Source: a virus
Reading direction: 5' to 3' (one strand)
Virus record (IMG/VR): IMGVR_UViG_3300043775_002839
Span: 1-64,000 of that record
Length of the DNA: 64,000 nt
The position numbers and the translations under genes are program-made. Below, piece by piece: positions 4,127 to 41,178 of the stretch (its first letter is position 1; every line of letters starts with the position of its first letter). The notes beneath the pieces were generated by a model. It did no database searches. It was not told the DNA's origin and saw only the letters and a program-made list of their open reading frames with translations.

Positions 4127-4495
4127 ATGAAAACATTTTTAGATTACATAGCAGAACAAGATATAACAGAAAACGAACTACAAGTCCTAAACGAGTCTCT
4201 TCAAACCGAATGGACCGAAGAACTTGAAGCTAAAGTTGATGCAGCTTTAGAGCAATTTTCAAAGACTTACAAAAATCTTGATGGAACTTATAATATCCAA
4301 GCGTTCAATGAAGAGATTACTAATGAAGGTATTTTAGGTAGTATCTTTGGTGGACTTGCAGGTTTTGCACTTGGTAAAACTGTTGGTAAAACTATTGCTA
4401 ATATTTTAGGAATCCAAAGTGGTATAATGTACGATATGTTAACCTCAAGACTAGTAGGAGCCGCTCTTGGTTCTTCTCTTGGTAGTAGAATCTAG
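4127..4495 (+). CDS. Putative internal head protein with glycine-zipper hydrophobic segment
   Basis: N-terminus MKTFLDYIAE resembles the T4 capsid targeting sequence; LNE/TNE sites; GILGSIFGGLAGFALG and GAALGSSLG. Confidence 0.45.
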   Translation: MKTFLDYIAEQDITENELQVLNESLQTEWTEELEAKVDAALEQFSKTYKNLDGTYNIQAFNEEITNEGILGSIFGGLAGFALGKTVGKTIANILGIQSGIMYDMLTSRLVGAALGSSLGSRI

Positions 4496-5152
4496 ATGAA
4501 TTTTGTAACGATTGACTTTTCCCTAAATTCACCAGGTATTTGCATCTTTTCAGATGACAAGTACTACTTTATTGGGTATTTAAAACCAAACACAGGTACT
4601 AAAGCCGAACAAAAGCTTCAAGAGGAATTAGACTTGCTTGAAGATACCAGAATTACTCATCAACCGGATTGGACGAATAACGAGGCCTATTCTAAAAGCG
4701 AGATGATTAAAATCCAGCGACACACCCAGACTGCAAGTGACATTATTAATATGATTATTGAAATTGCAGGCGATGATTCCCCTTTTGTGATTGCTTTTGA
4801 AGGCTCCTCTTATGGTTCTTCGGGTGGAACTAATAATATTATTGATATGGCGGCTGGAGCAGCAATCCTAAAGATGGAACTAATGTCGAGGCTTAAAGTC
4901 CAAGATATGATGACCATCGCACCTTCGACGATTAAGAAACATGCAGGTAAGGGTAACATGAAGAAGGATGAACTTTGGGTTAAATTCTTGGATAACGTTT
5001 TAAACGATTCAGTGCTTGAAACCTCGTCACTGCTTGGATTCTGTAAAACCCACATCGGAGAGACTAAAAAAGTCCCAAAACCTTTAGATGATTTGGTGGA
5101 TGCCTATTTTCTGAACCACTTAGCCCGGACTCTATTTTACCCGGAGGCTTAA
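4496..5152 (+). CDS. RuvC-like Holliday junction resolvase
   Basis: RNase H-fold motifs IDFSLNSPG, AFEG, APSTIKKHAGKGN, DDLVDAY. Confidence 0.75.
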   Translation: MNFVTIDFSLNSPGICIFSDDKYYFIGYLKPNTGTKAEQKLQEELDLLEDTRITHQPDWTNNEAYSKSEMIKIQRHTQTASDIINMIIEIAGDDSPFVIAFEGSSYGSSGGTNNIIDMAAGAAILKMELMSRLKVQDMMTIAPSTIKKHAGKGNMKKDELWVKFLDNVLNDSVLETSSLLGFCKTHIGETKKVPKPLDDLVDAYFLNHLARTLFYPEA

Positions 5153-5279
5153 AGACTTTAGTTATATTCAACATGTAAGTTTTTGTTTCAAGAATCTTAA
5201 AAAATATTTTAAGAAGGTAACTTTATGCCTCCAGGGACATGTCACCCTGATAAAAAAGATATATAATAATATAGATTCT

Positions 5280-5308
5280 TGAAACAAAAAAGAGAGTTTC
5301 TATATAAC
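5280..5308 (+). promoter_or_regulatory. Early/middle-type promoter TGAAAC-N17-TATAA upstream of gp32
   Basis: Same motif and spacing recurs at 21303, 21591, 25081, 34361, 39379, 62637, and at 53806 with an 18-nt spacer. Confidence 0.65.
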
Positions 5309-5381
5309 TATCATAAGTAATTAAAAGGGCCCTTAACACTTATTAAATTAAAGTTTAACAAAAATTAAAGCAATTAAAGAC

Positions 5382-6305
5382 ATGGCAGAATTTGACATTT
5401 TTAATCTTGGCGTAAATGACGTCGAAACACACGAAACCCAAGCTTCATCTGGAAGCGATCTTTACAAACCTACCGCAGATGACGGTAAGGATGGAACTTA
5501 TAAAGCAATGATTCGCTTTGTTCCTAACCCAACAAACCCACGAAACTCTTTAGTGAAAAAATACGTACACTGGCTAACTAATGCAAGTGGTGACGGTAAA
5601 ATGGTAGATTCTCCATCAACAGTTGGAGCTCCATGTCCTATCGCAGATGTATTCTTTAAGTTACGTAAAAGTGACTCAGCAGTTGACCGTAAAATGAGTG
5701 ATAAACTTAAAAGACGTGAGCAATACTTTGCACTTATTAAAATCATTAAAGACCCACAAAATCCTGAACTAGAAGGACAATACAAAGTTTTCAAATTTGG
5801 TTACAAAATCAAAGAGAAAATCGATGAGGAATTAAAACCAGCATTTGGTGAACCAACTCAAGTATTTGACCTATTTGCAGGTAAAAACTTCGAATTGATT
5901 ATTACTCGTCAAGGAGAATTTAACAACTACGATAAATCTAAGTTCTCTTCAAAAACTTCACCTATTGAAGTTGATGGTAAAGGTGCAACCAGAACTCCTG
6001 AAGCAATGGGTGCTATTAAAGCAGAATTGGAATCAGCTCCAAGCCTAGAGCCATACGAATACAAAGCATGGGACGGAGAAACTCTTGATTTTGTTAATTC
6101 TATTCTTAGAAATTACTTAAATCCTGGAAGTTCAATAGATTCAGTTGTTAATAAGCCTGCTGCTAAAAAAGCTCCAGCAAAATCTGAACCAACTTCAGAA
6201 TCTAGTGATTTTGAATTCCCAAATGAAATGGTAGGAAATCCAAGCTCTACTAACGTAGATTCTTCTGATGACCTAGATTCATTCTTAAACGACTTAGATA
6301 TTTAA
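5382..6305 (+). CDS. gp32: Single-stranded DNA-binding protein (T4 gp32-like)
   Basis: AMIRFVP, CPI, FKFGYKI, NYDKSKF motifs and acidic tail DDLDSFLNDLDI. Confidence 0.9.
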   Translation: MAEFDIFNLGVNDVETHETQASSGSDLYKPTADDGKDGTYKAMIRFVPNPTNPRNSLVKKYVHWLTNASGDGKMVDSPSTVGAPCPIADVFFKLRKSDSAVDRKMSDKLKRREQYFALIKIIKDPQNPELEGQYKVFKFGYKIKEKIDEELKPAFGEPTQVFDLFAGKNFELIITRQGEFNNYDKSKFSSKTSPIEVDGKGATRTPEAMGAIKAELESAPSLEPYEYKAWDGETLDFVNSILRNYLNPGSSIDSVVNKPAAKKAPAKSEPTSESSDFEFPNEMVGNPSSTNVDSSDDLDSFLNDLDI

Positions 6306-6368: not shown

Positions 6369-7493
6369 ATGCAGAGTCAAAAAATCACCGAAGATTTAAA
6401 GATAAAAATCAGGAGCTTGGTAAAACAAGCAATTGTAAAGGCCCACCATGAGCCAAGCAAGCATATGATTAAAGAGATGCCAGGTAGAATTACAATGGCA
6501 TGTCCTTATTGCGGTGACTCGACTACCGACCATAAAAAGAAACGTGGAAATCTCTACTGGGATACCTTACAATTCCATTGTTTTAACTGCGGCGTTCATT
6601 CAAATGCATACCAATTATTAAAAGACCATCATATAAAATTTCAAAGTACCGATGATTCTATTCAAGTTATTGACTATATTCAAGAGCATAAAATGGAAAC
6701 TAATGAAATTGAAGTACTCGAACATGATGTGTTTAAATTAACATATGATATGGCTCCTACCCGAAAAGAGCTAATGGAATGGTTTAAATTTAAAGAAGTC
6801 GAACCAGGAGACCCTGCATTTTTTTATCTTAAGAATCGATTGTTGTCCAGTCAAATGAATCGTTTTATGTACTCTCCTAAGGATAAAAGAATCGTAGTAC
6901 TCAATGTAGCCCCAAATGATAAAGTTATCGGCTTTCAAACTCGTTCAATCGACAAGCGTTCTAATTCTCGTTATTTAACTTATGACCTTGAGAAGATGTA
7001 CCAAGAGATTCAACGGGAGATTGTGCTGACTGATGAAGAATTGATTGGCGTTAAAAAACTTTCAACTCTTTTTGGAGTAATGACAGTTGACTTTGAACGC
7101 GAAGTTACAATGTTCGAAGGACCTATCGATGCAATGTTTATGCAAAATTCGATTGGATTGGCAACTGCAGGTCGTTCAACCTTAGAATTTGATGAGATAC
7201 CTACAATACGATATATGTTTGATAACGATACTACCGGTAAAAAGAAGATGATGGAGAAGATTCGAAGAGGCAAACAAATATTTACATGGGAGAAGTTCTT
7301 TAAAGATACTAAAATCGACAAGGATTGGGAAGACTTTTTGCAAAAATTGAACAAAGATGAAAGAGATAAATATCCTAAACAAATAGGTGATTTAAACGAT
7401 TTGGTGATCGCGTCTTGGCTAACAAAAAATAAATGCTTAGCGCAGATTCAAAAGTATTTTACTAACTCTCGACTAGATGCATATTACCTATGA
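6369..7493 (+). CDS. gp61: DNA primase (T4 gp61-like)
   Basis: Zn finger CPYCGDS...HCFNCG; TOPRIM motifs FEGPIDAMF and FDND. Confidence 0.9.
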   Translation: MQSQKITEDLKIKIRSLVKQAIVKAHHEPSKHMIKEMPGRITMACPYCGDSTTDHKKKRGNLYWDTLQFHCFNCGVHSNAYQLLKDHHIKFQSTDDSIQVIDYIQEHKMETNEIEVLEHDVFKLTYDMAPTRKELMEWFKFKEVEPGDPAFFYLKNRLLSSQMNRFMYSPKDKRIVVLNVAPNDKVIGFQTRSIDKRSNSRYLTYDLEKMYQEIQREIVLTDEELIGVKKLSTLFGVMTVDFEREVTMFEGPIDAMFMQNSIGLATAGRSTLEFDEIPTIRYMFDNDTTGKKKMMEKIRRGKQIFTWEKFFKDTKIDKDWEDFLQKLNKDERDKYPKQIGDLNDLVIASWLTKNKCLAQIQKYFTNSRLDAYYL

Positions 7494-7708
7494 TAAAAAT
7501 AGACTTTTTAGAAATGGTTGCCCAAGAATTCGAAGATTTTGAAAACGAAAAAAACAAAAGAAAGAATATTAAGATGATGCTAGATTTTAGTACATCAAAA
7601 TATTCACACACTGAAAAAGAATTTAAAATGACTAAGCCGCGATTAAAGGCCCGGTTAAAAAGTTCAGTATTTATTAAAGACAACAATAAAGGAAATTCAC
7701 TTTTTTAA
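7490..7708 (+). CDS. Hypothetical protein
   Basis: 72 aa ORF overlapping the primase stop (ATGA), within the operon. Confidence 0.5.
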   Translation: MIKIDFLEMVAQEFEDFENEKNKRKNIKMMLDFSTSKYSHTEKEFKMTKPRLKARLKSSVFIKDNNKGNSLF

Positions 7709-7719
7709 AAGCATCATAT

Positions 7720-8148
7720 ATGATAGATGTCAAAGACAAGATAACACAACTTGACGAGTACTTAATTAAACAGCGAGAAGATTGGACCCAAAAAATAAAA
7801 GGTCTAACTGAGGAACTTAAATTAGGTAACAATTTAGAGAGCGTAAGTGCATTCACACTTAGTTATCGACAAATATTGGTTGAACACCTCGCAACCATGG
7901 GTAATCGAATCAAAACCCAAAAATCAATAGTAGATAAAAAGTATAAAGATAAATGGATTGAGTATTATAGTTATGACTATAAGCTCACCGATAAAATGCG
8001 CGAAAAATTCGTTGACGCAGACATTGCGGACGATACAAATATCCTTGAGTTATTAGTGACTCAAAAAAGTTTTTTTGAGGGATCAATTAAAACACTCGAC
8101 AACATGGGCTTTGCAATCAAAAACAGGTTGGACATTAGTCGTTTATAA
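7720..8148 (+). CDS. uvsY: Recombination mediator, UvsY-like
   Basis: Helical 142 aa, C-terminal LDNMGFAIKN motif, immediately upstream of uvsW. Confidence 0.65.
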   Translation: MIDVKDKITQLDEYLIKQREDWTQKIKGLTEELKLGNNLESVSAFTLSYRQILVEHLATMGNRIKTQKSIVDKKYKDKWIEYYSYDYKLTDKMREKFVDADIADDTNILELLVTQKSFFEGSIKTLDNMGFAIKNRLDISRL

Positions 8149-8164
8149 AAATATCAAATGAGAT

Positions 8165-9673
8165 TTGATTTTAACATTAACGGATGACAATCAATTTTTA
8201 AGAATTGATGAAGCAACCGAAATTGAGTTAGAGCAGATTAGAATCTCTCTGACCAAAAGAATAGAAAGTTGGAGGTTTCACCCTCTAGTAAAACGCGGAG
8301 TTTGGGATGGATATGTATCATATATTAAAGATGATAAATGGATTCCAGCCGGACTTTGGCGTCATGTTATGACAATATGCAAAGAATACCGATACGAACT
8401 TAAAATCGAGGGTATTAAGAGACTTATTGACTCCAATATTAATGCAGAACAATTTGAGGAATGGGCTCTAGAATTCTTTAAGGGTTCACAGTTTACTCCT
8501 CGTGACTATCAAATAGAAACTGCATATAACATACTAAAATTTAGAAAGTGTCTAGCAGAGCTTGCAACTTCAGCAGGTAAGACACTGATTAGCTTCATGA
8601 CCGTTGCATACATGCTTGAAAAAGGACATGCCCAACGGATTCTTTTTATTGTACCGAATGTTTCATTGGTTGTACAAGCCCATGAAGATTTCCATGAATA
8701 TAATTGTAAAAATAGAATTGACCTAAGAATCCAACAAATATTTGCAGGACAAGAGATTAAAAAGAACAAAAATATAATTATTGGAACCTATCAATCACTA
8801 ATTAAAAAAGAACCTGCTTATTTTGCAGAGTTTGATGCAGTTATTGTCGATGAAACTCATAAGGCAAAAGGAGCCAGCATCAAAGAAATTCTTAGCAAGT
8901 GTGTTAATGCAAAATATAGGTTTGGACTTTCAGGTACAATTCCAAAAGATGGTACGCTTGACAAATTAACCCTAATGAGCCAGACTGGACCTGTGATTAG
9001 TGAGGTTAAGGCAAGTTTCCTACAAGAGCAAGGACATATTGCTCAATGTGTTGTTAAGGTTATTGAAATGAACTATGCAACTCCAAAGCAGCGAACAGCC
9101 TTTATGGAATTGGCACAGAATAGATATGATAATAAAGATGTGTTCTCATTAGAACAAAACTTTGTAATCACTAGTGATGCCAGACTTAATTTTATTTCAA
9201 ATGTAATTTCAAGAGTACCCCGGAACTCATTGGTGCTTTTTCATCGAATAGAACATGGACAGAGACTCTATGAAAAGTTAAGGCAAGAGAGCAATAAAAG
9301 GGTATTTTATGTCGATGGTGGAACTGCTTCAGAAATCCGAGAGGAATACAAAAAGAAGATGGAGGCTGGAGATGAAATTGTAATTGTTGCAAGCTTTGGA
9401 ACCTTCTCTACAGGTATCTCAATCAAGAAAATACACAACATATTTTTTACTGAATCATTCAAATCAGAGGTAATTATAAGACAATCAATTGGACGTGGAC
9501 TACGACAGCATGCATCAAAAGACAAGGTATTAATTGTTGATTTTGTAGATGATATTAGAACAGTTGAATGGGATAATTATTTATATAAGCATGGAAAGGT
9601 GAGACAATCAATATACAAACAAGAGAAATTTGAATACACTGTAAAGAAAGTGGATTTTGATGGGGATATATAA
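8165..9673 (+). CDS. uvsW: UvsW-like SF2 helicase
   Basis: PRDYQ, ATSAGKT, VDETH, GLSGT, QSIGRGLR. Confidence 0.9.
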   Translation: MILTLTDDNQFLRIDEATEIELEQIRISLTKRIESWRFHPLVKRGVWDGYVSYIKDDKWIPAGLWRHVMTICKEYRYELKIEGIKRLIDSNINAEQFEEWALEFFKGSQFTPRDYQIETAYNILKFRKCLAELATSAGKTLISFMTVAYMLEKGHAQRILFIVPNVSLVVQAHEDFHEYNCKNRIDLRIQQIFAGQEIKKNKNIIIGTYQSLIKKEPAYFAEFDAVIVDETHKAKGASIKEILSKCVNAKYRFGLSGTIPKDGTLDKLTLMSQTGPVISEVKASFLQEQGHIAQCVVKVIEMNYATPKQRTAFMELAQNRYDNKDVFSLEQNFVITSDARLNFISNVISRVPRNSLVLFHRIEHGQRLYEKLRQESNKRVFYVDGGTASEIREEYKKKMEAGDEIVIVASFGTFSTGISIKKIHNIFFTESFKSEVIIRQSIGRGLRQHASKDKVLIVDFVDDIRTVEWDNYLYKHGKVRQSIYKQEKFEYTVKKVDFDGDI

Positions 9674-21642: not shown

Positions 21643-23067
21643 ATGGAATTTATAGACGCATTAAGACAAGATGATATGTTAACTGAAAATGGAATGGCGA
21701 CAAATTCGACATCATTGAATGCTTGCGTTGACCTTTTCTTTAACATTGGAGCTATGAGAGGACAGGACAAGCAACGTTTGATTGCTACTTTCTCTAAAGC
21801 ATTTAATGAAGACCCAAAGCGCGCTATGAAACTTCTTTTTTGGGCTAGAGATGTTCGAGGTGGAGCTGGAGAACGTCAAGTTTTCAAAGACATTTTAGTC
21901 TACTTGGCAGAAAACCACGACTTGGTACTTAAACCAAACTTACACTTAATTTCTGAGTATGGACGTTGGGATGATTTATTAGTCTTAACAGGAAAATATC
22001 TTGAAAAAGAGGCATTCACCCTAATTTCAGATGCTTTAATTGCTGAAAATAATTTATGTGCAAAATGGATGCCCCGTAAAGGACCAATCGCTGAAAAGTT
22101 ACGTAAATTTACTGGAATGTCTCCAAAACAATACAGAAAATCTCTTGTAGGTTTAACTAATGTTGTTGAAACTAAAATGTGTGCTAAAGATTGGAATTCT
22201 ATTGACTTCGGTAAATTACCATCAGTAGCTTCTGCACGTTACCAAAAAGCCTTTGGTAAAAATGCATACGAAAGTTATTCAGCGTATATTGCTTCCCTTG
22301 TAAAAGGTGAGGCTAAGATTAATGCAGGTGCAGTTTATCCTTACGATATTATTACATCGTTAGAGCGTGGAAATGCAACCGTAGCAAACGAACAATGGAA
22401 AGCCTTGCCAAACTATTTGGAAGGTGCAAATGATATGATTTTACCAGTAGTAGACGTTTCAGGTTCTATGTCAACTCCAGCTGGTGGAAGTAAAACTGTA
22501 ACTTGTATGAATGTTGCAATCTCATTAGGTCTCTATATTTCTGAAAGAAATGAAGGTCCTTTCAAAGATGCATTTATTACATTCTCAAGTAAACCACAGT
22601 TACAAGTATTAAGTGGCTCACTGAATGATCGCTACACACAGATGTCAGACTCTGATTGGGGAATGTCAACAGATCTTGAGGCTACATTCAAACTGATCCT
22701 AGATCAGGCCACTAAGCACAAATTATCGCAAGATAAAATGCCAAACAAAATCCTAATCCTATCGGATATGGAGTTTAACACGGCAACATCAAAACGATAT
22801 GGAATAGAAAGTGGATGGAATCCAACTGCGCAGCAGATGATTGAAACTATGTATTCCGATGCAGGTTACAAAGTACCTCAAATTGTTTACTGGAACATTC
22901 AATCCCGAAACGGAGGAGTACCAGTTTCATTTGATGCTAAAGGAACTGCCCTAATTTCAGGATTCTCTCCAGCGATTATGACAAGCCTACTTGGAGGAGA
23001 TATAGAATCTCCACAACAAATAATGGATAAAACAATTTTGAGTGAGAGATACGCTCCAGTTGTTTAA
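21643..23067 (+). CDS. TROVE/Ro60-like (DUF2828-type) protein with C-terminal vWA domain
   Basis: TENG...ACVDLFF, RDVRGGAGER, YGRWDDL, AKWMPR, MIDAS motif DVSGSM, ILSDMEF, IVYWN. Confidence 0.8.
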   Translation: MEFIDALRQDDMLTENGMATNSTSLNACVDLFFNIGAMRGQDKQRLIATFSKAFNEDPKRAMKLLFWARDVRGGAGERQVFKDILVYLAENHDLVLKPNLHLISEYGRWDDLLVLTGKYLEKEAFTLISDALIAENNLCAKWMPRKGPIAEKLRKFTGMSPKQYRKSLVGLTNVVETKMCAKDWNSIDFGKLPSVASARYQKAFGKNAYESYSAYIASLVKGEAKINAGAVYPYDIITSLERGNATVANEQWKALPNYLEGANDMILPVVDVSGSMSTPAGGSKTVTCMNVAISLGLYISERNEGPFKDAFITFSSKPQLQVLSGSLNDRYTQMSDSDWGMSTDLEATFKLILDQATKHKLSQDKMPNKILILSDMEFNTATSKRYGIESGWNPTAQQMIETMYSDAGYKVPQIVYWNIQSRNGGVPVSFDAKGTALISGFSPAIMTSLLGGDIESPQQIMDKTILSERYAPVV

Positions 23068-23765: not shown

Positions 23766-24041
23766 ATGAATATTTTAGATGAAGCAAGCGGAATAGTTAA
23801 TAACCGCTCCGAAGAAGCAGACAGAAATTACGGTCCATTTTCAGAAGGTATGGACCGGGCTGCAATGATTTTTAAAGGTATGACCGGACTTGAAGTTACA
23901 GGTGAACACATGTTTAAAGCGCTAGTTGCACTTAAATTCTCTAGAGAATCGTACAATCACAAGCGTGATAACTTATTAGATGCAGTTGCATATATCCAAG
24001 GATTAGACAACTACATTAACGAAAAGCAAAACAATGGTTAA
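23766..24041 (+). CDS. DUF6378-like small helical protein (nucleotide-modification associated)
   Basis: ILDEA..IV..R...YG, LKFSR, HKRDNLLDAVAY. Confidence 0.6.
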   Translation: MNILDEASGIVNNRSEEADRNYGPFSEGMDRAAMIFKGMTGLEVTGEHMFKALVALKFSRESYNHKRDNLLDAVAYIQGLDNYINEKQNNG

Positions 24042-25083
24042 CATTTACACAGTTTTAGATTCATTAAAAGGTAAGAAGATTGCAATTGATGATGTTGTAA
24101 CTACGTATAGTTCAAAGAAGGCCAGCCATAAAAGTGCATGGGCCTTCTTATTAGCTAATCAATTAAAGTCTCTCAGTTTGGATGTTGAAGTACTTACCAA
24201 GTCAGAAGATATTCATCAATATGATATCTGGTTGGTAGCTCTTCCAATGGAATTCCAAGGGTCTTATAACTTATTTGGTGGAGCCACTGACGAACCAGCA
24301 GAGAGAATTAAAAGATTCTTAGATTTTAATGGAACAATATATTGTTTGAATCGAGAAATGCCAAATGTTGGACAATTTGCCGAAAGCCGAATGAAATCAT
24401 GTTCTCCTCTGTGGGCATCTCTTAATACTGAGGCACTTACAAAAAGAAGTTTGGAAACACAAACGATTGAATTAAAACTAGATTCTAAAACATTTGTTTT
24501 AGGAGATTCTCATTCAGTTTCAGTGTACCATCCAGGTTCAAATATTAGTCGAAATGATGGTAAAACCCTATTTGGAGTCTTAAAAGAAGGAATGCGATCT
24601 TATATTCCTTTAGATACTGAACACTTAATAACGTACTTTGGAAACATCGATGTTCGTCATCACTTATGTCGACAAGAAAAACCAGTCGAAGCGGTTAAAA
24701 GTTTAGTAGCAAACTACTTTGAACACCTTAAATCATTAGGAATTCAAAAGAATACCATCGTAAAATTATTACCAATCGAATTTGAAGGTCGTAGAATTCC
24801 TAAAACTGGCTACCATAAAGGAACACCATTTATCGGAACTCAACGAGAACGGACTCAATTAATGGAAATATTTAACGAAGAGGTTGACAAACTCTCGGCT
24901 ATATATAATATGAACGTAATCGAATGGCCGATTCACTGGTACTCAGCAGACCCTCAATACTTTGCCGATACCTATATGGAAAAGCCAGGTTCTGTTCACC
25001 TATCTAGAGAGTTTTACCAATATGATTTCGAGACGTCCGAAAAAAATGTTGTCCTAAAGAAGACTATCAATACTCTTTTTTGA
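24034..25083 (+). CDS. Hypothetical protein with SGNH-like C-terminal half
   Basis: VLGDSHS, YFGNIDVRHH, SVHLS motifs. Confidence 0.5.
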   Translation: MVNIYTVLDSLKGKKIAIDDVVTTYSSKKASHKSAWAFLLANQLKSLSLDVEVLTKSEDIHQYDIWLVALPMEFQGSYNLFGGATDEPAERIKRFLDFNGTIYCLNREMPNVGQFAESRMKSCSPLWASLNTEALTKRSLETQTIELKLDSKTFVLGDSHSVSVYHPGSNISRNDGKTLFGVLKEGMRSYIPLDTEHLITYFGNIDVRHHLCRQEKPVEAVKSLVANYFEHLKSLGIQKNTIVKLLPIEFEGRRIPKTGYHKGTPFIGTQRERTQLMEIFNEEVDKLSAIYNMNVIEWPIHWYSADPQYFADTYMEKPGSVHLSREFYQYDFETSEKNVVLKKTINTLF

Positions 25084-25133
25084 AACTTTTTAAATAAAAC
25101 AAGTATAAAAATTATAAATTAAATTTTAAGAAA

Positions 25134-26321
25134 ATGAACAAAATTAAAGTAGGAATTATTGGAACTGGAAATTGCGCTAAATCATTAGTTGAAGGTGTAC
25201 AATATTACACAGAGAATCCAAATGATATTACCGGAATGATGAAGTCCGATATTGGAGGTTACAAAGCAGAAAATATTGAATTTGTCTGTGGATTCGAAAT
25301 TGATGAACGTAAAGTTAATCAAACATTAGGATATGCACTTAAACAAAGACCAAACTCTGCATGGGACATTGTTGATGTAATCAAATCTGAGGCTCCAGTT
25401 TATGAGGCTCCAGTAATTGATGGTTATGCAGCCCTTATGGATAACTATCCAGAACAAAATCGTTTCTTAGTTGACGAAAAACTAAGAAATTCTACAGACA
25501 TGAATCGCACTGATTGGACACCAAAAAAATCAAGAGAATGGAAGGATTCAATCATTGCTAAATTAAAAGACCATGGAGTTGAGGTATTGATTAACTACTT
25601 ACCGGTAGGTTCTCAAAAAACAACTGAATTCTGGGCTGAAATTTGTCTTGAAACAGGAATCTCACTAGTAAACTGTATTCCAGTTTTTATTGCATCTGAC
25701 CCAGCTTGGGAGCAGCGATTTATCGATGCTGGAATTCCAATTATTGGAGATGATATGCGTTCTCAATTTGGAGCAAGTATTCTTTCTCAAATGTTACAAG
25801 AACTTGCCTTTGAAAGAGGACATCATGTAAAAGCCCACATCCAAAGAAATGTTGGAGGTAACACAGATTTCTTAAACATGGAAGACAAATCTCGTCTAGC
25901 ATCTAAAAAGATTTCTAAAGAAAATGTTATCCGTGCACAAAACGAAATCCGTGGAATTTCAACTGAAGATTCATTCTTACACGCAGGTCCTTCTGAATAT
26001 ATCGCATTCTATGGTGATAACAAAGTTGCTAACTTCCGTTTAGAACTTACAGGATTCGGTGGAGCACCAGTTCTTTTTGATGCTCAATTAAGTGTACAAG
26101 ACTCTCCAAACTCTGCAGGAGTTGTAATTGACGCAGTTCGTTACTTAAGAGTTGCAAGAGAATTAGGAGTTGTAGGAGCCTTAAGAGGTCCTTCAGCATT
26201 TACACAAAAAACCCCACCAGACCAGATGATGTTTGCTGACGCTGTTTATGAATGTACTGAATTGGCTGCAAGACGCCTAACAGATTCTACAAGAAAACAG
26301 TTAGTTGCTAAAACAAAATAA
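25134..26321 (+). CDS. ino1: myo-inositol-1-phosphate (inositol-3-phosphate) synthase
   Basis: GIIGTGNCAKSLVEG, NYLPVGS, GDD.RSQFGA, NVGGNTDFLNM, SKKISK, DSPNSAGVVIDAVR. Confidence 0.93.
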   Translation: MNKIKVGIIGTGNCAKSLVEGVQYYTENPNDITGMMKSDIGGYKAENIEFVCGFEIDERKVNQTLGYALKQRPNSAWDIVDVIKSEAPVYEAPVIDGYAALMDNYPEQNRFLVDEKLRNSTDMNRTDWTPKKSREWKDSIIAKLKDHGVEVLINYLPVGSQKTTEFWAEICLETGISLVNCIPVFIASDPAWEQRFIDAGIPIIGDDMRSQFGASILSQMLQELAFERGHHVKAHIQRNVGGNTDFLNMEDKSRLASKKISKENVIRAQNEIRGISTEDSFLHAGPSEYIAFYGDNKVANFRLELTGFGGAPVLFDAQLSVQDSPNSAGVVIDAVRYLRVARELGVVGALRGPSAFTQKTPPDQMMFADAVYECTELAARRLTDSTRKQLVAKTK

Positions 26322-26342
26322 GTCTAACAATTACATTAACCT

Positions 26343-26372
26343 AAAGGGAGAGAAATAACTCTCCCTTTTTTT
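26343..26372 (+). terminator. Rho-independent terminator
   Basis: AAAGGGAGAG-loop-CTCTCCCTTT followed by a T-run. Confidence 0.7.
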
Positions 26373-26387
26373 ATCAAAACTTTAAGC

Positions 26388-26786
26388 ATGTTAAATATTT
26401 TTAAAACAAAAAAACCAATCGATATCTACGGATATGATTTTGACGGAGTAATTTCAATTGGAATAACTCCAAGAGCCACCACCGATTTTATTATTACTGG
26501 AAGATGCGTCGATGAACAGGACGAAGTTCGTGCAATTCTTAAAGAGAGAGGAATTAAATGCAAGGTCTATTTTAATCCAATGACCTTAGCAGAGCGTGGA
26601 AACCATACTGTTGCGGCAAGAAGACATTCTGGACATCATAAGGCACATACAATTAACCGTTTAAAAGGTGAAGGTGTTATTGTTTCCAGGTTTTTTGAAG
26701 ATGACCCAATACAATACCAAATCATTCAGGAAAACTGTCCTGATGTCGAATTGGTTAATATTGTATCAAAATTAGTACAGAAGTAA
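26388..26786 (+). CDS. HAD-superfamily phosphatase (capless)
   Basis: Motif I YDFDGV, motif II ITGR, motif III K, motif IV FEDD. Confidence 0.75.
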   Translation: MLNIFKTKKPIDIYGYDFDGVISIGITPRATTDFIITGRCVDEQDEVRAILKERGIKCKVYFNPMTLAERGNHTVAARRHSGHHKAHTINRLKGEGVIVSRFFEDDPIQYQIIQENCPDVELVNIVSKLVQK

Positions 26787-26787
26787 G

Positions 26788-27489
26788 ATGTCTAGAGTTA
26801 AACTTCCAGAGTTTCCAATTTCTAAGTTGGAAAGGACCAGACTTAAAAAGAAATATGTTAAGATACTAGGAGCATCAGAAGGCGTTGATGACGCTATGAT
26901 TGGCGAAAGCATTTCTAATTATTTAATACCTGAGGTTGACTATAAGGGAGCAGTTTGTTTAGATCTTGGAGCTAATATCGGCACATTTACTCAAATCGCA
27001 CTGGATTCCGGAGCAAGTAAAGTATGTACGGTAGAATGTGATGTCAGAAACTTTGAAAAACTAAGAGAAACATTTAAAAATGACGACTATGTTGACTTGG
27101 TTTATGCTGCAGTTTCTGGGCTTCCCGAAAAGACCCTAAAAATATTCAAATCCCATAGTCAAAATGCGCATTGTTCAACTTCAATTGAGAATAAGATAAA
27201 GTTCAGTGAATATGACTATGTTGAAAATATCCATCTAAAAAAGTTATTAAAAAAATACAAGCCAGATATTATAAAGATGGATATTGAATCTGCAGAGTAT
27301 ACCCTAATCGATACCTTAATAGATTACCAACCTAAATATTTGTTTATTGAATTACACGCTGGAAAGCACAGGGCTGAAATGTATCAGGTGTTAGAAAGGT
27401 TAGAGACTGTTTACCCGTACTCAAGGATAGTTCCACTAATTATATTCACCGACAATTTAATAGCGCACGATTGCTTTTTTAAAAAATAA
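26788..27489 (+). CDS. FkbM-family SAM-dependent methyltransferase
   Basis: LDLGANIG, VE, AAVS, IKMDIESAEY, IELH. Confidence 0.8.
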   Translation: MSRVKLPEFPISKLERTRLKKKYVKILGASEGVDDAMIGESISNYLIPEVDYKGAVCLDLGANIGTFTQIALDSGASKVCTVECDVRNFEKLRETFKNDDYVDLVYAAVSGLPEKTLKIFKSHSQNAHCSTSIENKIKFSEYDYVENIHLKKLLKKYKPDIIKMDIESAEYTLIDTLIDYQPKYLFIELHAGKHRAEMYQVLERLETVYPYSRIVPLIIFTDNLIAHDCFFKK

Positions 27490-27492
27490 AAT

Positions 27493-28686
27493 ATGAAAAT
27501 GACTTCAAATAAACAATTGCTTGAGATGGATTCTCAGGCACTATTGGATTTAATACCAACAGAAAAAAAGCAGCTCATTCGAGATTTTATTCATGAAATG
27601 AATCGAAGAGAATATGAGGTTCGTTTTGCAAAAACCTGTACTTTTGATACTTTTAGGCATCGAGAAGGTACTGGAGAGGACAAATTTGGGCATGGATTTA
27701 TTGTAGAGGGACGATCAGTTCCATACTTCCACCCAAATCGTTCGTTTCACGACGAGATTATTTGGTTAAACGAAAATGTCTTCTACAATCCAGAATGTAC
27801 CTTTGAAGACCGACTAATTAATGCAGCAATTGTAAAATTCTATGGACCGTCAAATACAATTAGTCTATTAACACACGACACTGGATTTCCATTTGTTAAA
27901 TATGACCGATTAGTTAATGATGAGAAGTATGTTCTGCAGTGCATGGTTAATATGGAGAATGCCAGAAGACGTGGAGAAAAGATTTATGGTACTACAGAAT
28001 TACGAACAAGTTTGCAGACAGAATCGAGAAACCATGCCCGAGTTCTTAAAACTCCTTATGATGTATTAATCAATGCCGAACCGGATCCAACCAGACAGAG
28101 TCGAACAAGCGATATGTTTTTTTGGTTTACCTTACTAGGTCCTCGTTTTGCAGAATTTTATGCTAAGAAGCCGACAATGGAAGAATCGTTTGACTTTTTA
28201 ACATCGCATCGAGGAATTGGAAACTATTATGGATATCACTTTAGTACCAACCTTGCCCGAATGCCTGAAATTGGGACTCCTGATCTATTGCGACCAAACA
28301 GTTTATCTGGAAATCTTAACGAAGATGATGACTTTGTTGCACCTGGAGTTGGAGCGATGACCACAATCAACTGGTTCTATGAAGACTTAGGTTTTTCAAT
28401 CTCATCTGATGTTGGAGCCAAGGTTATCAGACAAATCAGGGACACTCAACACGATTTCTTTGATTTTACTGGAGAGAATCTTGACTATTTAGAAACTATC
28501 ACAGAGACTGGAAGGTTTACAACTTTTGGTACAGAAATTAGTTGTTGTCAGTTTGGCGTATTTTTACGATTGAGAGACAGCAAGAAAATGGCCCTAAACC
28601 GCGCAAATGCTCCAATTTCAAAAGAGCAAATTGGCGAATCATGCGAGGTTGAAAACGTATCATTTAAAAGTTCATGTTTATTTTAA
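27493..28686 (+). CDS. aGPT-Pplase1 / amino-acid:DNA-transferase-like DNA base hypermodification enzyme (HhH glycosylase-like fold)
   Basis: F...MNRR, F.PNR..HD, DRLIN, RGIGNYYGY, EDDDFVAPGVGA, EISCCQF, resembling clade-1 motifs GIG.F.AY / DFV..GPGA / E..LCE. Confidence 0.6.
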   Translation: MKMTSNKQLLEMDSQALLDLIPTEKKQLIRDFIHEMNRREYEVRFAKTCTFDTFRHREGTGEDKFGHGFIVEGRSVPYFHPNRSFHDEIIWLNENVFYNPECTFEDRLINAAIVKFYGPSNTISLLTHDTGFPFVKYDRLVNDEKYVLQCMVNMENARRRGEKIYGTTELRTSLQTESRNHARVLKTPYDVLINAEPDPTRQSRTSDMFFWFTLLGPRFAEFYAKKPTMEESFDFLTSHRGIGNYYGYHFSTNLARMPEIGTPDLLRPNSLSGNLNEDDDFVAPGVGAMTTINWFYEDLGFSISSDVGAKVIRQIRDTQHDFFDFTGENLDYLETITETGRFTTFGTEISCCQFGVFLRLRDSKKMALNRANAPISKEQIGESCEVENVSFKSSCLF

Positions 28687-28727
28687 ACAGTTTCAAAATT
28701 ACCTATAAAACTATTATATAAAAACTT

Positions 28728-29195
28728 ATGGCAAATATAGACAATCAATGTAAAGACCTTGAAGTTCATGACTTCTATTCAAATTCGACCACCCACCTGG
28801 CGGATATTATGGAAAACCAAAAGAGGATGCAAGAGCAAACTTATGGTTTCAATTTTGAAAATATGTCAATTAGAGAAATTATGAACTTCTGGCATGTCAA
28901 TACACACGCGGTAGTTGATGAAATTCATGAAATGACCGATGCCCTTGGAGGTATTAAAGATGGTAGTGGAAATGCAGTTTGGAAATACTGGAAAAAAGAC
29001 TTTGCAAAGTATGAAACTATGAAAGTTTCCGACCTATCAGAAGAGGACAAAAAAGAACTTTATATGGAATGGGTAGACATACTACATTTCTTTATAAATT
29101 ATGCATCTTCAATCGGATTAGATGCAAAAACAGCATACAATTATTACTTCGCAAAAGCAGAAGAAAATGTTAACCGCCAAAAAAGAGGATATTAA
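28728..29195 (+). CDS. All-alpha dCTP/dUTP pyrophosphatase (T4 gp56/dimeric dUTPase-like)
   Basis: DEIHE, WKYWK, EWVDILHF, K..EN..RQ.RGY. Confidence 0.8.
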   Translation: MANIDNQCKDLEVHDFYSNSTTHLADIMENQKRMQEQTYGFNFENMSIREIMNFWHVNTHAVVDEIHEMTDALGGIKDGSGNAVWKYWKKDFAKYETMKVSDLSEEDKKELYMEWVDILHFFINYASSIGLDAKTAYNYYFAKAEENVNRQKRGY

Positions 29196-35172: not shown

Positions 35173-36369
35173 ATGACAATCGAAGAATTAATACTAAAAC
35201 CAGAAGGTGAGTTATCACAAGATGAAATTAAAATATTGGTTGAGCATTATTCTATGTTGTCAGCAAAGTTCGGTGCCTATGAGCAAGCAGTAAAAGTAAT
35301 GCTTAACTCAATCTATGGTGCATTCGGTAATAAATGGTTTCACTTTTTTAATATAGACATCGCAGAATCTATTACCTTACAGGGACAGTCTGCGATTCTA
35401 TATTCTGAGAAGATACTAAATAAGTACTTTCAAGAGTTCTGGACTAAAGACAAGGCAGTTCATGAGTTTTTTAACATCGGAGTTAAGAGCAAATTGGTGC
35501 GACCTTCAGTAGTCTATATTGATACCGATTCTTGTTATGTACAGTTTGAAGAGATGTATGAATCTATCGAATGGCTTGGAGACAAGTTATCGATTGACCA
35601 ATTCATTATGAAATTGTATAACTTTAGACTTAAGGATTATATCTTTAAGTGTATGGAGAAATATGCCGAAGCCACTAATACTGAAAACTTCCTCCAGTTT
35701 GAATTGGAAACGATTGCATACTCTGGAATTTGGTTAGCTAAGAAAAAATACCTGCAGAATATTGCATGGGAAGATAAAATCGGAATCGAAGAACGTTACC
35801 CTTCGCTTAAGAAAGTGAAAACCATCGGATTTGATACAATTCAAAGTTCAACTCCAGCTCTTGCAAGAAAGCAATTAACTGAGATACTTAAACTGATTCT
35901 TTCAGAAAAACCTACTGCTTCTCTATTAAAGAGACTTGTAGACCATTTGAAACAATGTAAAAAAGAATTTCAGCTGGCAAGTGTTGATGAGATATGTTTT
36001 AATAAAAGAACTAACAATATTGAAAAATATATTGTAGATGATACTGTAGAATTTCAATATGGTTTAAAATGTCCGCCAAACGTTAAAGCTGCTGGTTTTT
36101 ATAATTTCTTAATGAATCAAAATCCAAAGCACAAGAACAAATATAAGATGATTGGTAATGGTGAAAAGTTAAAACTATACCACTGTAAACATGGAACTTG
36201 CGAAATATTTGCATACCAACCAGGATCTCATCCCTATGAAATCGCTCCTCAAGTTGACTATGAAACACAATTTGAAAAGAGTGTTATAGACCCATTGAAC
36301 CGGGTTCTTACTGCAGTTGGTTTACACACATTAAATAGAAACTTAATTTATTCAACCTCATTATTTTAA
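35173..36369 (+). CDS. gp43B: Family B DNA polymerase, C-terminal subunit (motifs B, C, thumb)
   Basis: Motif B KVMLNSIYG, motif C YIDTDS, KKKY, C-terminal clamp-binding-like TSLF. Confidence 0.9.
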   Translation: MTIEELILKPEGELSQDEIKILVEHYSMLSAKFGAYEQAVKVMLNSIYGAFGNKWFHFFNIDIAESITLQGQSAILYSEKILNKYFQEFWTKDKAVHEFFNIGVKSKLVRPSVVYIDTDSCYVQFEEMYESIEWLGDKLSIDQFIMKLYNFRLKDYIFKCMEKYAEATNTENFLQFELETIAYSGIWLAKKKYLQNIAWEDKIGIEERYPSLKKVKTIGFDTIQSSTPALARKQLTEILKLILSEKPTASLLKRLVDHLKQCKKEFQLASVDEICFNKRTNNIEKYIVDDTVEFQYGLKCPPNVKAAGFYNFLMNQNPKHKNKYKMIGNGEKLKLYHCKHGTCEIFAYQPGSHPYEIAPQVDYETQFEKSVIDPLNRVLTAVGLHTLNRNLIYSTSLF

Positions 36370-40734: not shown

Positions 40735-41178
40735 ATGAGAACACAAAGAGATAAAATATTCGACAATACATTTACTGAGAGTGAATATGAATTAGACAGT
40801 TCATTTTCTTTTGAAATTGCTCCAAGCTACCTAGACAATCGAGACGAAGAGGACAAAATTGAAACGCAAATCATAATCACAAAGATTCATGAACTAATTG
40901 AATCTTCAAGATTTAAACACTTCAATAGCATTAACGAATTTAATGAGACTGTTAAATTAAAAAAGAATGAAATTAACGAAATCTATGAATTTATTTCAGA
41001 CGAGCTCAGACCAAACCATTCAATTATAGAAGTATTTTCAGAATTATGTGATTACTTTAATGTTAATCCAACCAAATTCTACCAGTCACTAGGAAACAAA
41101 TTTAAAGAAGAGCTAATCGAAGTATTAGACAAGAAGACAAACGTACTTAAGAAAAAGCATATAAATAGATTATTCTAA
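40735..41178 (+). CDS. Hypothetical protein
   Basis: 147 aa ORF within the operon. Confidence 0.5.
   Translation: MRTQRDKIFDNTFTESEYELDSSFSFEIAPSYLDNRDEEDKIETQIIITKIHELIESSRFKHFNSINEFNETVKLKKNEINEIYEFISDELRPNHSIIEVFSELCDYFNVNPTKFYQSLGNKFKEELIEVLDKKTNVLKKKHINRLF

Follow-up and report, generated by a model that had tools for sequence, protein, structure and literature searches.

A phage gene cassette that may make inositol and link it to 5-hydroxymethylcytosine in DNA

Why would a T4-like phage keep what look like genes for making inositol a short way upstream of its DNA polymerase gene? The question is raised by the first 64,000 nucleotides (64 kb; hereafter the window) of IMG/VR virus record IMGVR_UViG_3300043775_002839, a 93.7-kb phage contig. 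A cassette of seven genes there, at 23766-29195, encodes among others a myo-inositol-1(3)-phosphate synthase (MIPS), a small phosphatase, a methyltransferase and a relative of the enzymes that hypermodify thymidine in phage DNA. An original prediction, made from the sequence alone, proposed that the phage makes inositol with the synthase (Ino1) and the HAD phosphatase, attaches it to a pyrimidine in its DNA and may O-methylate it. Our analysis retains the synthesis and the attachment, to which gene linkage, gene fusions and protein fold all point, and corrects the standing of the enzyme and the likely base. We give a probability of roughly 60% to the reading that the island makes inositol and links it to 5-hydroxymethylcytosine (5hmC) in the phage DNA.

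The seven open reading frames (ORFs), all on the plus strand, have the coordinates originally given, and each family call was upheld. In order, the cassette contains:

23766-24041, + strand: p1, small DUF6378 protein (PF19905, 1.2e-8)
24034-25083, + strand: p2, two-domain protein with a beta-glucosyltransferase-like N-domain and an SGNH/GDSL C-domain (Foldseek, VIA, hhalign)
25134-26321, + strand: p3, MIPS family protein (PF01658, 1.5e-22)
26343-26368, + strand: terminator-like hairpin between the MIPS and phosphatase genes (10-bp stem with 5 GC pairs, then a T run)
26388-26786, + strand: p4, minimal capless HAD phosphatase (four HAD motifs, invariant in 11 homologues)
26788-27489, + strand: p5, FkbM-family S-adenosylmethionine methyltransferase (PF05050, 1.5e-12; TIGR01444, 1.6e-16)
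27493-28686, + strand: p6, HhH-fold protein of the aGPT-Pplase clan (PF18723 HMUDK_hel, 2.2e-7)
28728-29195, + strand: p7, T4 gp56-type dCTPase/dUTPase, an all-alpha NTP pyrophosphatase (phrog_173, 1.7e-13)

The cassette does end 1 bp into the DNA polymerase gene: p7 overlaps the N-terminal half of polB, which starts at 29195, by one base. The terminator suspected after ino1 corresponds to the terminator-like hairpin listed above. The contig is a fragment, with a CheckV completeness estimate of 30%; relatives whose genes are 95% identical measure 234-236 kb. Its T4-like backbone includes a family-B polymerase in split form, nrdA/B and a homologue of gp56. PADLOC gave no hit for p1, p2, p4 or p6, NCBIfam gave none for these four or for p7, and megablast of the cassette region against phages returned zero matches.

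The association of these genes extends far beyond the window. We searched viral contigs with an alignment of p6, which gave 62 loci, and sought MIPS and the other genes around each by tblastn. The expected co-occurrence of ino1 with this aGPT-Pplase type was found in 61 of the 62, where MIPS lies within a few kilobases of the p6 homologue, down to 40% p6 identity; nearly all of the loci also hold p2 and p4. A second scan started from MIPS and gave 529 viral stretches, of which the best 80 were read and 67 proved to be new loci. These contain p2 (67/67), p4 (66/67), DUF6378 (63/67) and, in the p6 slot, an HMUDK_hel protein (56/67). Gene order is shuffled, running p2-MIPS-p4-FkbM-p6 in the window and MIPS-p4-p6-p2 elsewhere, and the flanks differ too. 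In about 40 of the MIPS-side loci the p6 slot is occupied by an HMUDK_hel protein of 346-350 aa or 487 aa that is 25-28% identical to p6 and keeps the ExxxC motif described below; on PF18723, slot variants of relatives reach 50.6 and 37.9 bits. Since the arrangement is found again in more than 120 viral loci, it lies far beyond chance. Many loci are close kin, which makes the counts look more independent than they are; the evidence from gene order, from the exchange at the p6 slot and from the fusions holds regardless of kinship. Examples of the swapped slot are L100:11674-12723, L145:12293-13342 and L115:11567-13030, in loci where MIPS, p2 and DUF6378 are 85-96% identical to those of the window.

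Gene fusions tie the same proteins together. In Aeromonas phages 44RR2.8t and 31, p2 and p6 form one protein of 795-807 aa. Longer database proteins include a p6-p2 fusion in the reverse order, a second p2-p6 clade and an FkbM-p6 fusion (P0122). Because fusions of p2 and p6 exist in either order, we regard p2 as an obligate partner of p6. Phage 44RR2.8t is also the sole p6-side exception to MIPS linkage. In both 44RR and 31, the gene directly upstream of the p2-p6 fusion encodes a Na+/sugar symporter (4307-5830 in phage 31, locus L001, and 7307-8830 in locus L062); the symporter is YidK-like and scores 351 bits to Vibrio vSGLT. Judged from its homology, this protein is consistent with uptake, rather than synthesis, of the same sort of solute.

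Three phages carry the inositol genes next to other DNA-modification systems. MIPS followed by a p4-type small HAD gene occurs in Caulobacter phage Cr30, Ralstonia phage RP13 and Stenotrophomonas phage Moby. In Cr30, the gene directly upstream of MIPS encodes an amino-acid:DNA transferase (AADT; PF18724, 1.3e-52), and in RP13 some 3 kb separate the pair from an HMUDK_hel gene (3e-47) upstream. In Moby (L002, MN095772.1; 7207-12621), the pair is flanked by FolE (GTP cyclohydrolase I) on one side and QueC / DpdA-like TGT / QueE on the other, within a 7-deazaguanine DNA-modification cluster, in a genome without a thymidylate synthase (TS) homologue; the Moby product may be an inositol-decorated deazaguanine. 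An HMM search found no p2 or p6 homologues in the 17-kb regions of these three phages. Stenotrophomonas Menderavirus phages carry MIPS and the HAD gene as well. The original prediction had staked itself on ino1 being linked to DNA-modification genes in relatives, and such linkage is what we find, in the cassette loci and in Cr30, RP13 and Moby.

The candidate transferase is p6, which had been labelled aGPT-Pplase1-like. It matches PF18723 HMUDK_hel with 31.0 bits (gathering cut-off 25; E 2.2e-7) over profile positions 53-273 of 281. Pfam labels this family as the helical domain of 5-hmdU DNA kinase. We calibrated the names on phage PaMx11, in which gp46, the solved glycinyltransferase, matches PF18724 ADDT (1.6e-27), gp49 is a P-loop kinase and its neighbour gp50 matches PF18723 (5.6e-41). 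From this calibration, PF18723 appears to correspond to what used to be called aGPT-Pplase clade 1, and the original label is right. PF18724 does not match p6 even at E up to 10; p6 matches PF18723 only.

The AlphaFold model of p6 (pLDDT 88.9) bears out the HhH/aGPT fold expected for 27493-28686. In an exhaustive VIA search, the best of 48,161 chains was 8z2m_A, the PaMx11 gp46 5-PmdU glycinyltransferase (PUGT), with Z 10.0 and rmsd 4.3 over 229 of 287 residues, a Z that is under the VIA caution line for helical proteins, though the match list is uniform. QNG1 comes next, followed by a uniform list of HhH-GPD DNA glycosylases at Z 5-9. Foldseek of the model against the PDB returned nothing at E <= 0.001, and profile searches of p6 and of p2 against PDB sequences gave chance rows only.

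Conservation is strong in p6. Its 18 homologues, at 44-89% identity, share ∼100 invariant positions, including a GIGxYYGYH hairpin, and Glu348-x3-Cys352 is invariant in 18/18 sequences. The ExxxC motif is common to p6, PaMx11 gp46 (E243/C247, near the C-terminus), PaMx11 gp50, RP13 ORF120 and the Cr30 AADT, and its position is equivalent in all of them. In the enzymes of aGPT-Pplase clade 2, this Cys serves as the nucleophile and is essential, while metal is bound by the Glu close to it (PMC8989533, PMC11472151, PMC13458397). The sequence places p6 in a separate branch of the aGPT-Pplase clan. The original call of an aGPT-Pplase-type enzyme thus holds for the clan fold and the Glu-x3-Cys motif; what does not carry over is membership among the proven amino-acid:DNA transferases, p6 being of clade 1/HMUDK_hel. 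Across cassette loci and fusion proteins, p6 has p2 and FkbM as neighbours and fusion partners, never a P-loop kinase. We propose p6 as a candidate cyclitol:DNA transferase on the grounds of its motif and modelled fold, and we set the odds that p6 rather than p2 is the transferase at about even.

The partner, p2, had been described as an SGNH-like unknown. The SGNH domain is confirmed, and the protein is more than an unknown, given its obligate association with p6. Its model (pLDDT 91.4) has two alpha/beta domains. Residues 148-338 adopt the GDSL/SGNH fold (Foldseek E 6.5e-5, probability 1.0, against GDSL esterases; VIA Z 12.2, rmsd 3.5, 163 residues). The invariant motifs are GDSHS, GNID, HH and a late His, and the conserved SGNH catalytic residues are S159 (GDSHS, block I), N204 (GNID, block III) and H322 (block V); there is no conserved Asp three residues before the His of this domain. 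The other domain resembles T4 beta-glucosyltransferase (beta-GT), whose residues 1-97 are matched by residues 14-105 of p2, NFFGG loop included, with an hhalign probability of 90.5% and E 1.3e-6 over 86 columns. The score is 52.1, compared with 15.1 +/- 2.3 for 60 shuffles. Matches in structure searches with whole p2 were filled by the SGNH domain, and the likeness of the N-domain to T4 beta-GT is one of sequence; the ESM Atlas gave no usable match for the N-domain. The UDP-glucose-binding C-terminal domain of T4 beta-GT is not in p2. Because residues 148-338 are an SGNH domain instead, p2 is not a member of the T4 beta-GT (GT-B) family. By alignment and model, p2 looks like a beta-GT with its UDP-sugar half swapped for an acyl-transfer-type domain.

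Which base would carry the added group? Five larger relatives of the phage all have a TS homologue, a divergent gene directly beside the cassette in four and located elsewhere in the genome in the 95%-identical G001. Among 17 diverse loci, 11 have a TS gene within a few kilobases of the cassette, often accompanied by DUF1599, dCMP deaminase and trimeric dUTPase genes. Compared with T4 gp42, the cassette-side homologues and that of G001 all keep the catalytic Cys, the Asp at ThyA-143, Asp169 and the Asp at N177. As aligned, this residue set is the dCMP hydroxymethylase (gp42) signature. 5-Hydroxycytosine was considered as the base and set aside, the D169N diagnostic of 5-hydroxy-dCMP synthases being absent (PMC13326640). 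In a tblastn search with the dCTPase p7, 1441 phage records gave matches to gp56 / dCTP pyrophosphatase genes. Published gene content adds that phages 44RR, 31 and 25 have genes 42 and 56 and lack a glucosyltransferase (PMC2993671). On the strength of the gp42-type TS homologues, the gp56-type dCTPase, the beta-GT-like N-domain of p2 and the gene content of 44RR, 31 and 25, the target base is probably 5hmC, not 5-hydroxymethyluracil (5hmU). The hydroxymethyl-pyrimidine target of the original prediction gains from the hydroxymethylase genes of the relatives, and 5hmU, the base named in its proposed tests, is disfavoured. No second HMUDK_hel, PF18748 kinase or PF18724 gene was found in the five relatives (three complete), although the PF18748 kinase model is insensitive, the proven PaMx11 kinase scoring only 18 bits. 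The 5hm-kinase noted as absent from the window was thus not found in three complete relatives either.

On the supply side of the cassette, MIPS scores 80.3 bits on PF01658 (cut-off 27; 1.5e-22) and has 1gr0, the Mycobacterium tuberculosis Ino1, as its closest solved relative (3e-77), followed by Ari2 (6k96; 2e-40); the two matches reach 264 and 142 bits. The match covers the whole catalytic domain, and the NVGGN, SKKISK and DSPNSAG blocks are intact, with GDDIKSQ of Ino1 reading GDDMRSQ here. These features predict a MIPS family enzyme that converts glucose-6-P to inositol-3-P. The adjacent p4 has no Pfam match. Its HAD motifs, D17xD19GV, T37GR, H84K85 and (E)D105D106, are invariant in 11 homologues, and it matches phrog_415 (polynucleotide kinase; 1.1e-5), in our reading through the phosphatase domain of that family. 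p4 is likely, from motifs and position, an inositol-phosphate phosphatase.

We propose the following pathway. p7 would feed dCMP to the hydroxymethylase, and a T4-like route (gp56 and a gp42-like enzyme) would replace C by 5hmC in DNA. MIPS would turn host glucose-6-P into inositol-3-P, from which the HAD phosphatase would release myo-inositol. p6 would flip out the 5hm-base and its Cys352 would attack C6; departure of the 5-substituent would give an exocyclic methylene, to which an inositol hydroxyl would add to form an ether, 5-(inosityl-O-methyl)cytosine. p2 would work in complex with p6, perhaps acylating the 5-CH2OH into a leaving group and so replacing the P-loop kinase step, a role to which we give much less than even odds. 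FkbM would O-methylate the cyclitol, which in other lineages would be sulfated, methylated in another way or glycosylated. The proposal in its full form is that a cyclitol (myo-inositol, O-methylated here and sulfated or glycosylated elsewhere) is ether-linked to the cytosine 5-methylene without a kinase, by a clade-1 Pplase cysteine enzyme together with a beta-GT-like/SGNH hybrid, and that the same supply module is plugged into thymine systems (Cr30, RP13) and perhaps 7-deazaguanine systems (Moby). This full form we hold tentatively, at slightly worse than an even chance.

Several observations weigh against linkage of inositol to 5hmC by p6. Both the modification of virion DNA and inositol as the added group are predictions from the genes. 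The known clan enzymes use phosphorylated 5hmU, whereas here the five relatives yielded no kinase and the base is 5hmC-like. The hydroxymethylase that the original prediction noted as absent from the window is missing from the rest of the contig too, the 93.7 kb holding no TS homologue. Cys352 of p6 is equated with Cys247 of PUGT by motif and position, not by residue superposition. By hhalign, p6 is not significantly similar to the Cr30 AADT and is weakly similar to the RP13 HMUDK_hel protein (E 0.0015). We know of no demonstrated activity for the clade-1/HMUDK_hel family. On the supply side, MIPS scores 286 bits on the TIGR03450 equivalog, below its cut-off of 638, and the MIPS family also includes Ari2, which makes a five-membered cyclitol. 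Finally, 44RR and 31 have p2-p6 and lack MIPS, Aeromonas phage 25 has p2 and lacks p6, and the clade-1 protein of phage M6, gp55, is dispensable in vitro (PMC8989533).

Some of these points bear on the division of labour between p6 and p2. The island might modify DNA with p6 as a mere DNA-binding or base-flipping partner and p2 transferring the group through its SGNH serine; or the group might be inositol phosphate or another MIPS product, and the HAD enzyme would act once transfer is complete. We consider this family of explanations unlikely. It draws on the score of p6 on PF18723, the 'kinase helical domain', rather than PF18724, on the P-loop kinase that adjoins the PaMx11 PF18723 gene, and on the finding that clade 1 is unneeded for transfer in vitro (PMC8989533). 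The catalytic residues of p2 look intact, its N-domain is of the acceptor type, and p2 stands without p6 in phage 25. However, Glu-x3-Cys and ∼100 other positions invariant at 44-89% identity exceed what a docking module needs, any protein that takes over the p6 slot again has ExxxC, and the transfers known for SGNH enzymes are of acyl groups, not of alkyl or phosphoryl groups.

Other doubts concern the inositol itself. MIPS and the HAD phosphatase might be an auxiliary metabolic pair, serving an osmolyte, a lipid head group or signalling, that merely lies in a plastic early-gene region. This would suit the terminator-like hairpin 3′ of MIPS, the occurrence of MIPS+HAD and of p2+p6 each without the other, and published accounts in which the MIPS of phages is an acquired, bacteria-like gene (PMC9025141), the Ps15 paper giving it only as bacteria-like. 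We nevertheless find it improbable, as unrelated phages have MIPS+HAD within or next to four different sets of base-modification genes, the cassette set stays together to 40% identity despite its shuffled order, and 44RR and 31 have a sugar-type importer at the MIPS spot. Hosts like Stenotrophomonas, Ralstonia and Caulobacter are not known to have prominent inositol lipids. The enzyme could also make another cyclitol or carbocycle, as Ari2 does in forming a five-membered cyclitol phosphate from fructose-6-P, and the added group would then not be myo-inositol. Here the place of Ari2 as second-best solved relative, the score below the Ino1 equivalog cut-off and the altered GDDIKSQ block count in favour; against them stand the far stronger match to Ino1 and the three intact blocks, and we give this option little credence.

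The remaining cassette genes suggest that the added group is tailored in several ways. The original prediction had the FkbM enzyme O-methylate it; FkbM membership is confirmed and methylation appears optional, FkbM being present in 43/67 MIPS-side loci and replaced elsewhere by other methyltransferases or sulfotransferases. TAGT glycosyltransferases occur in the cassettes of some lineages. The presence of Methyltransf_11/24, sulfotransferase and TAGT genes in the same place fits varied tailoring, as far as their families indicate. One lineage has two tandem Sulfotransfer_2 genes directly 3′ of p6 (L043:11503-13238), and others have Methyltransf_24 or Methyltransf_11 genes inside the cassette (L043:8880-9599; L060:9238-10011). 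DUF6378 (p1) accompanies the cassette and, among the relatives, the hydroxymethylase gene too; in other lineages DUF1599 ('nucleotide modification associated domain 1') is found at the TS-like gene in its place.

Further genes were seen beside or within the cassette. A C5 cytosine DNA methyltransferase homologue (PF00145, 3.1e-19) lies directly 3′ of p6/p2 in two lineages (L038:11443-12621 and seven other loci). Beside the cassette at L145:13284-13781 is a gene for a cREC_REC 'cyclic-phosphate processing receiver' protein, and at L151:6845-7809 the HMUDK_hel and dCTPase genes are separated by genes for a cREC_REC protein and a 2OG-Fe(II) oxygenase. The gp42-adjacent lineage has a Nuc_deoxyri_tr2 (nucleoside 2-deoxyribosyltransferase-like) gene between MIPS and HAD (L051:9069-9542, L053:8910-9365, L067:9141-9635). 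Just 5′ of the cassette in the window, at 21643-23067, is a gene for a TROVE/Ro60-like vWA protein (DUF7788, 5.7e-54; DUF2828, 8e-34), which is kept with the cassette in close relatives only. At the genome position of the 44RR and 31 fusions, Aeromonas phage 25 (L084 3662-6933) encodes a UDP-galactopyranose mutase (PF03275, 5e-54), a 358-aa protein and a stand-alone p2 homologue. This set may direct a different, possibly galactofuranose, decoration of 5hmC. The 358-aa protein was compared with p6 and rejected as a relative.

Several proteins share a C-terminal ending. The last residues are ...LF in p2 (KKTINTLF, 24034-25083), in p6 (SSCLF, 27493-28686) and in the C-terminal half of polB (STSLF), and two further proteins end in KKHINRLF and KKINTLF. 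The set beyond p2 and p6 has its coordinates at 35173-36369 and 40735-41178 of the window and 64492-65724 of the contig. The ...LF ending occurs in 6/102 ORFs. In the L051/L067 lineage, p2 and p6 both end in ...LESFF. Such endings may be sliding-clamp docking tails.

In the literature that could be searched, no paper connects inositol with phage DNA modification, and we found no description of such a DNA base. If our reading is true, cyclitols would be a new chemical class among natural DNA bases, and the clade-1 Pplase / HMUDK_hel family and the widespread hybrid SGNH protein would each gain a first function. It would also explain the use of 5hmC in Aeromonas phages 44RR and 31, which have gene 42 and no glucosyltransferase. 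The cassette is common, and its parts are present in cultured phages (Cr30, RP13, Stenotrophomonas Menderavirus, 44RR and 31). Bases of this kind bear on restriction and CRISPR evasion and on the sequencing of phage DNA, and the enzymes are potential tools for labelling 5hmC.

Among known systems, one close parallel is thymidine hypermodification in phages M6, ViI, PaMx11, PhiW-14 and SH-Ab 15599, which uses a dUMP hydroxymethylase, a 5-hmdU DNA kinase, aGPT-Pplase2/AADT and tailoring enzymes. Both involve a TS-family hydroxymethylase and a 5-hydroxymethyl-pyrimidine, and in both the cluster holds an HhH-fold Glu-x3-Cys enzyme and neighbouring genes that supply or tailor the substituent. In ViI the linkage is through oxygen, with a serine hydroxyl as the nucleophile, much like the proposed inositol ether. 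However, p6 is a divergent PF18723 (clade 1) protein, not a PF18724 one, no P-loop kinase was found here, its partner is a beta-GT-like/SGNH protein and the hydroxymethylase signature is of the cytosine type. The donor would be a phage-made cyclitol rather than a host amino acid or polyamine.

The glucosylation of 5hmC in T-even phages, by alpha- and beta-glucosyltransferases acting after the gp56 dCTPase and the gp42 dCMP hydroxymethylase, shares a different part of the system, namely the T4-like backbone, the gp56 homologue in the window and the gp42-like genes in relatives. The N-domain of p2 is homologous to the N-terminal half of T4 beta-GT, with SGNH in place of the UDP-sugar-binding domain. 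Because inositol has no anomeric carbon, its link cannot be a glycoside and needs different chemistry. The arabinosyl-5-hydroxycytosine pathway of RB69 and DLP3 likewise encodes a supply line for its added group, and a small HAD phosphatase proposed to act on a sugar phosphate adjoins a TS homologue and a dCTPase, as in the cassette (PMC13326640). The RB69 and DLP3 TS homologues carry D169N and make 5-hydroxy-dCMP, whereas those of the cassette relatives keep Asp169, and transfer there is by GT-B glycosyltransferases from UDP-arabinose (PMC13326640). The phage MIPS, in turn, has the fold and catalytic blocks of bacterial Ino1 (M. tuberculosis 1gr0, matched at 3e-77) and of Ari2 (6k96). It differs from them in being virus-encoded, in scoring below the Ino1 equivalog cut-off and in always being trailed by a 125-155 aa HAD phosphatase, not an IMPase.

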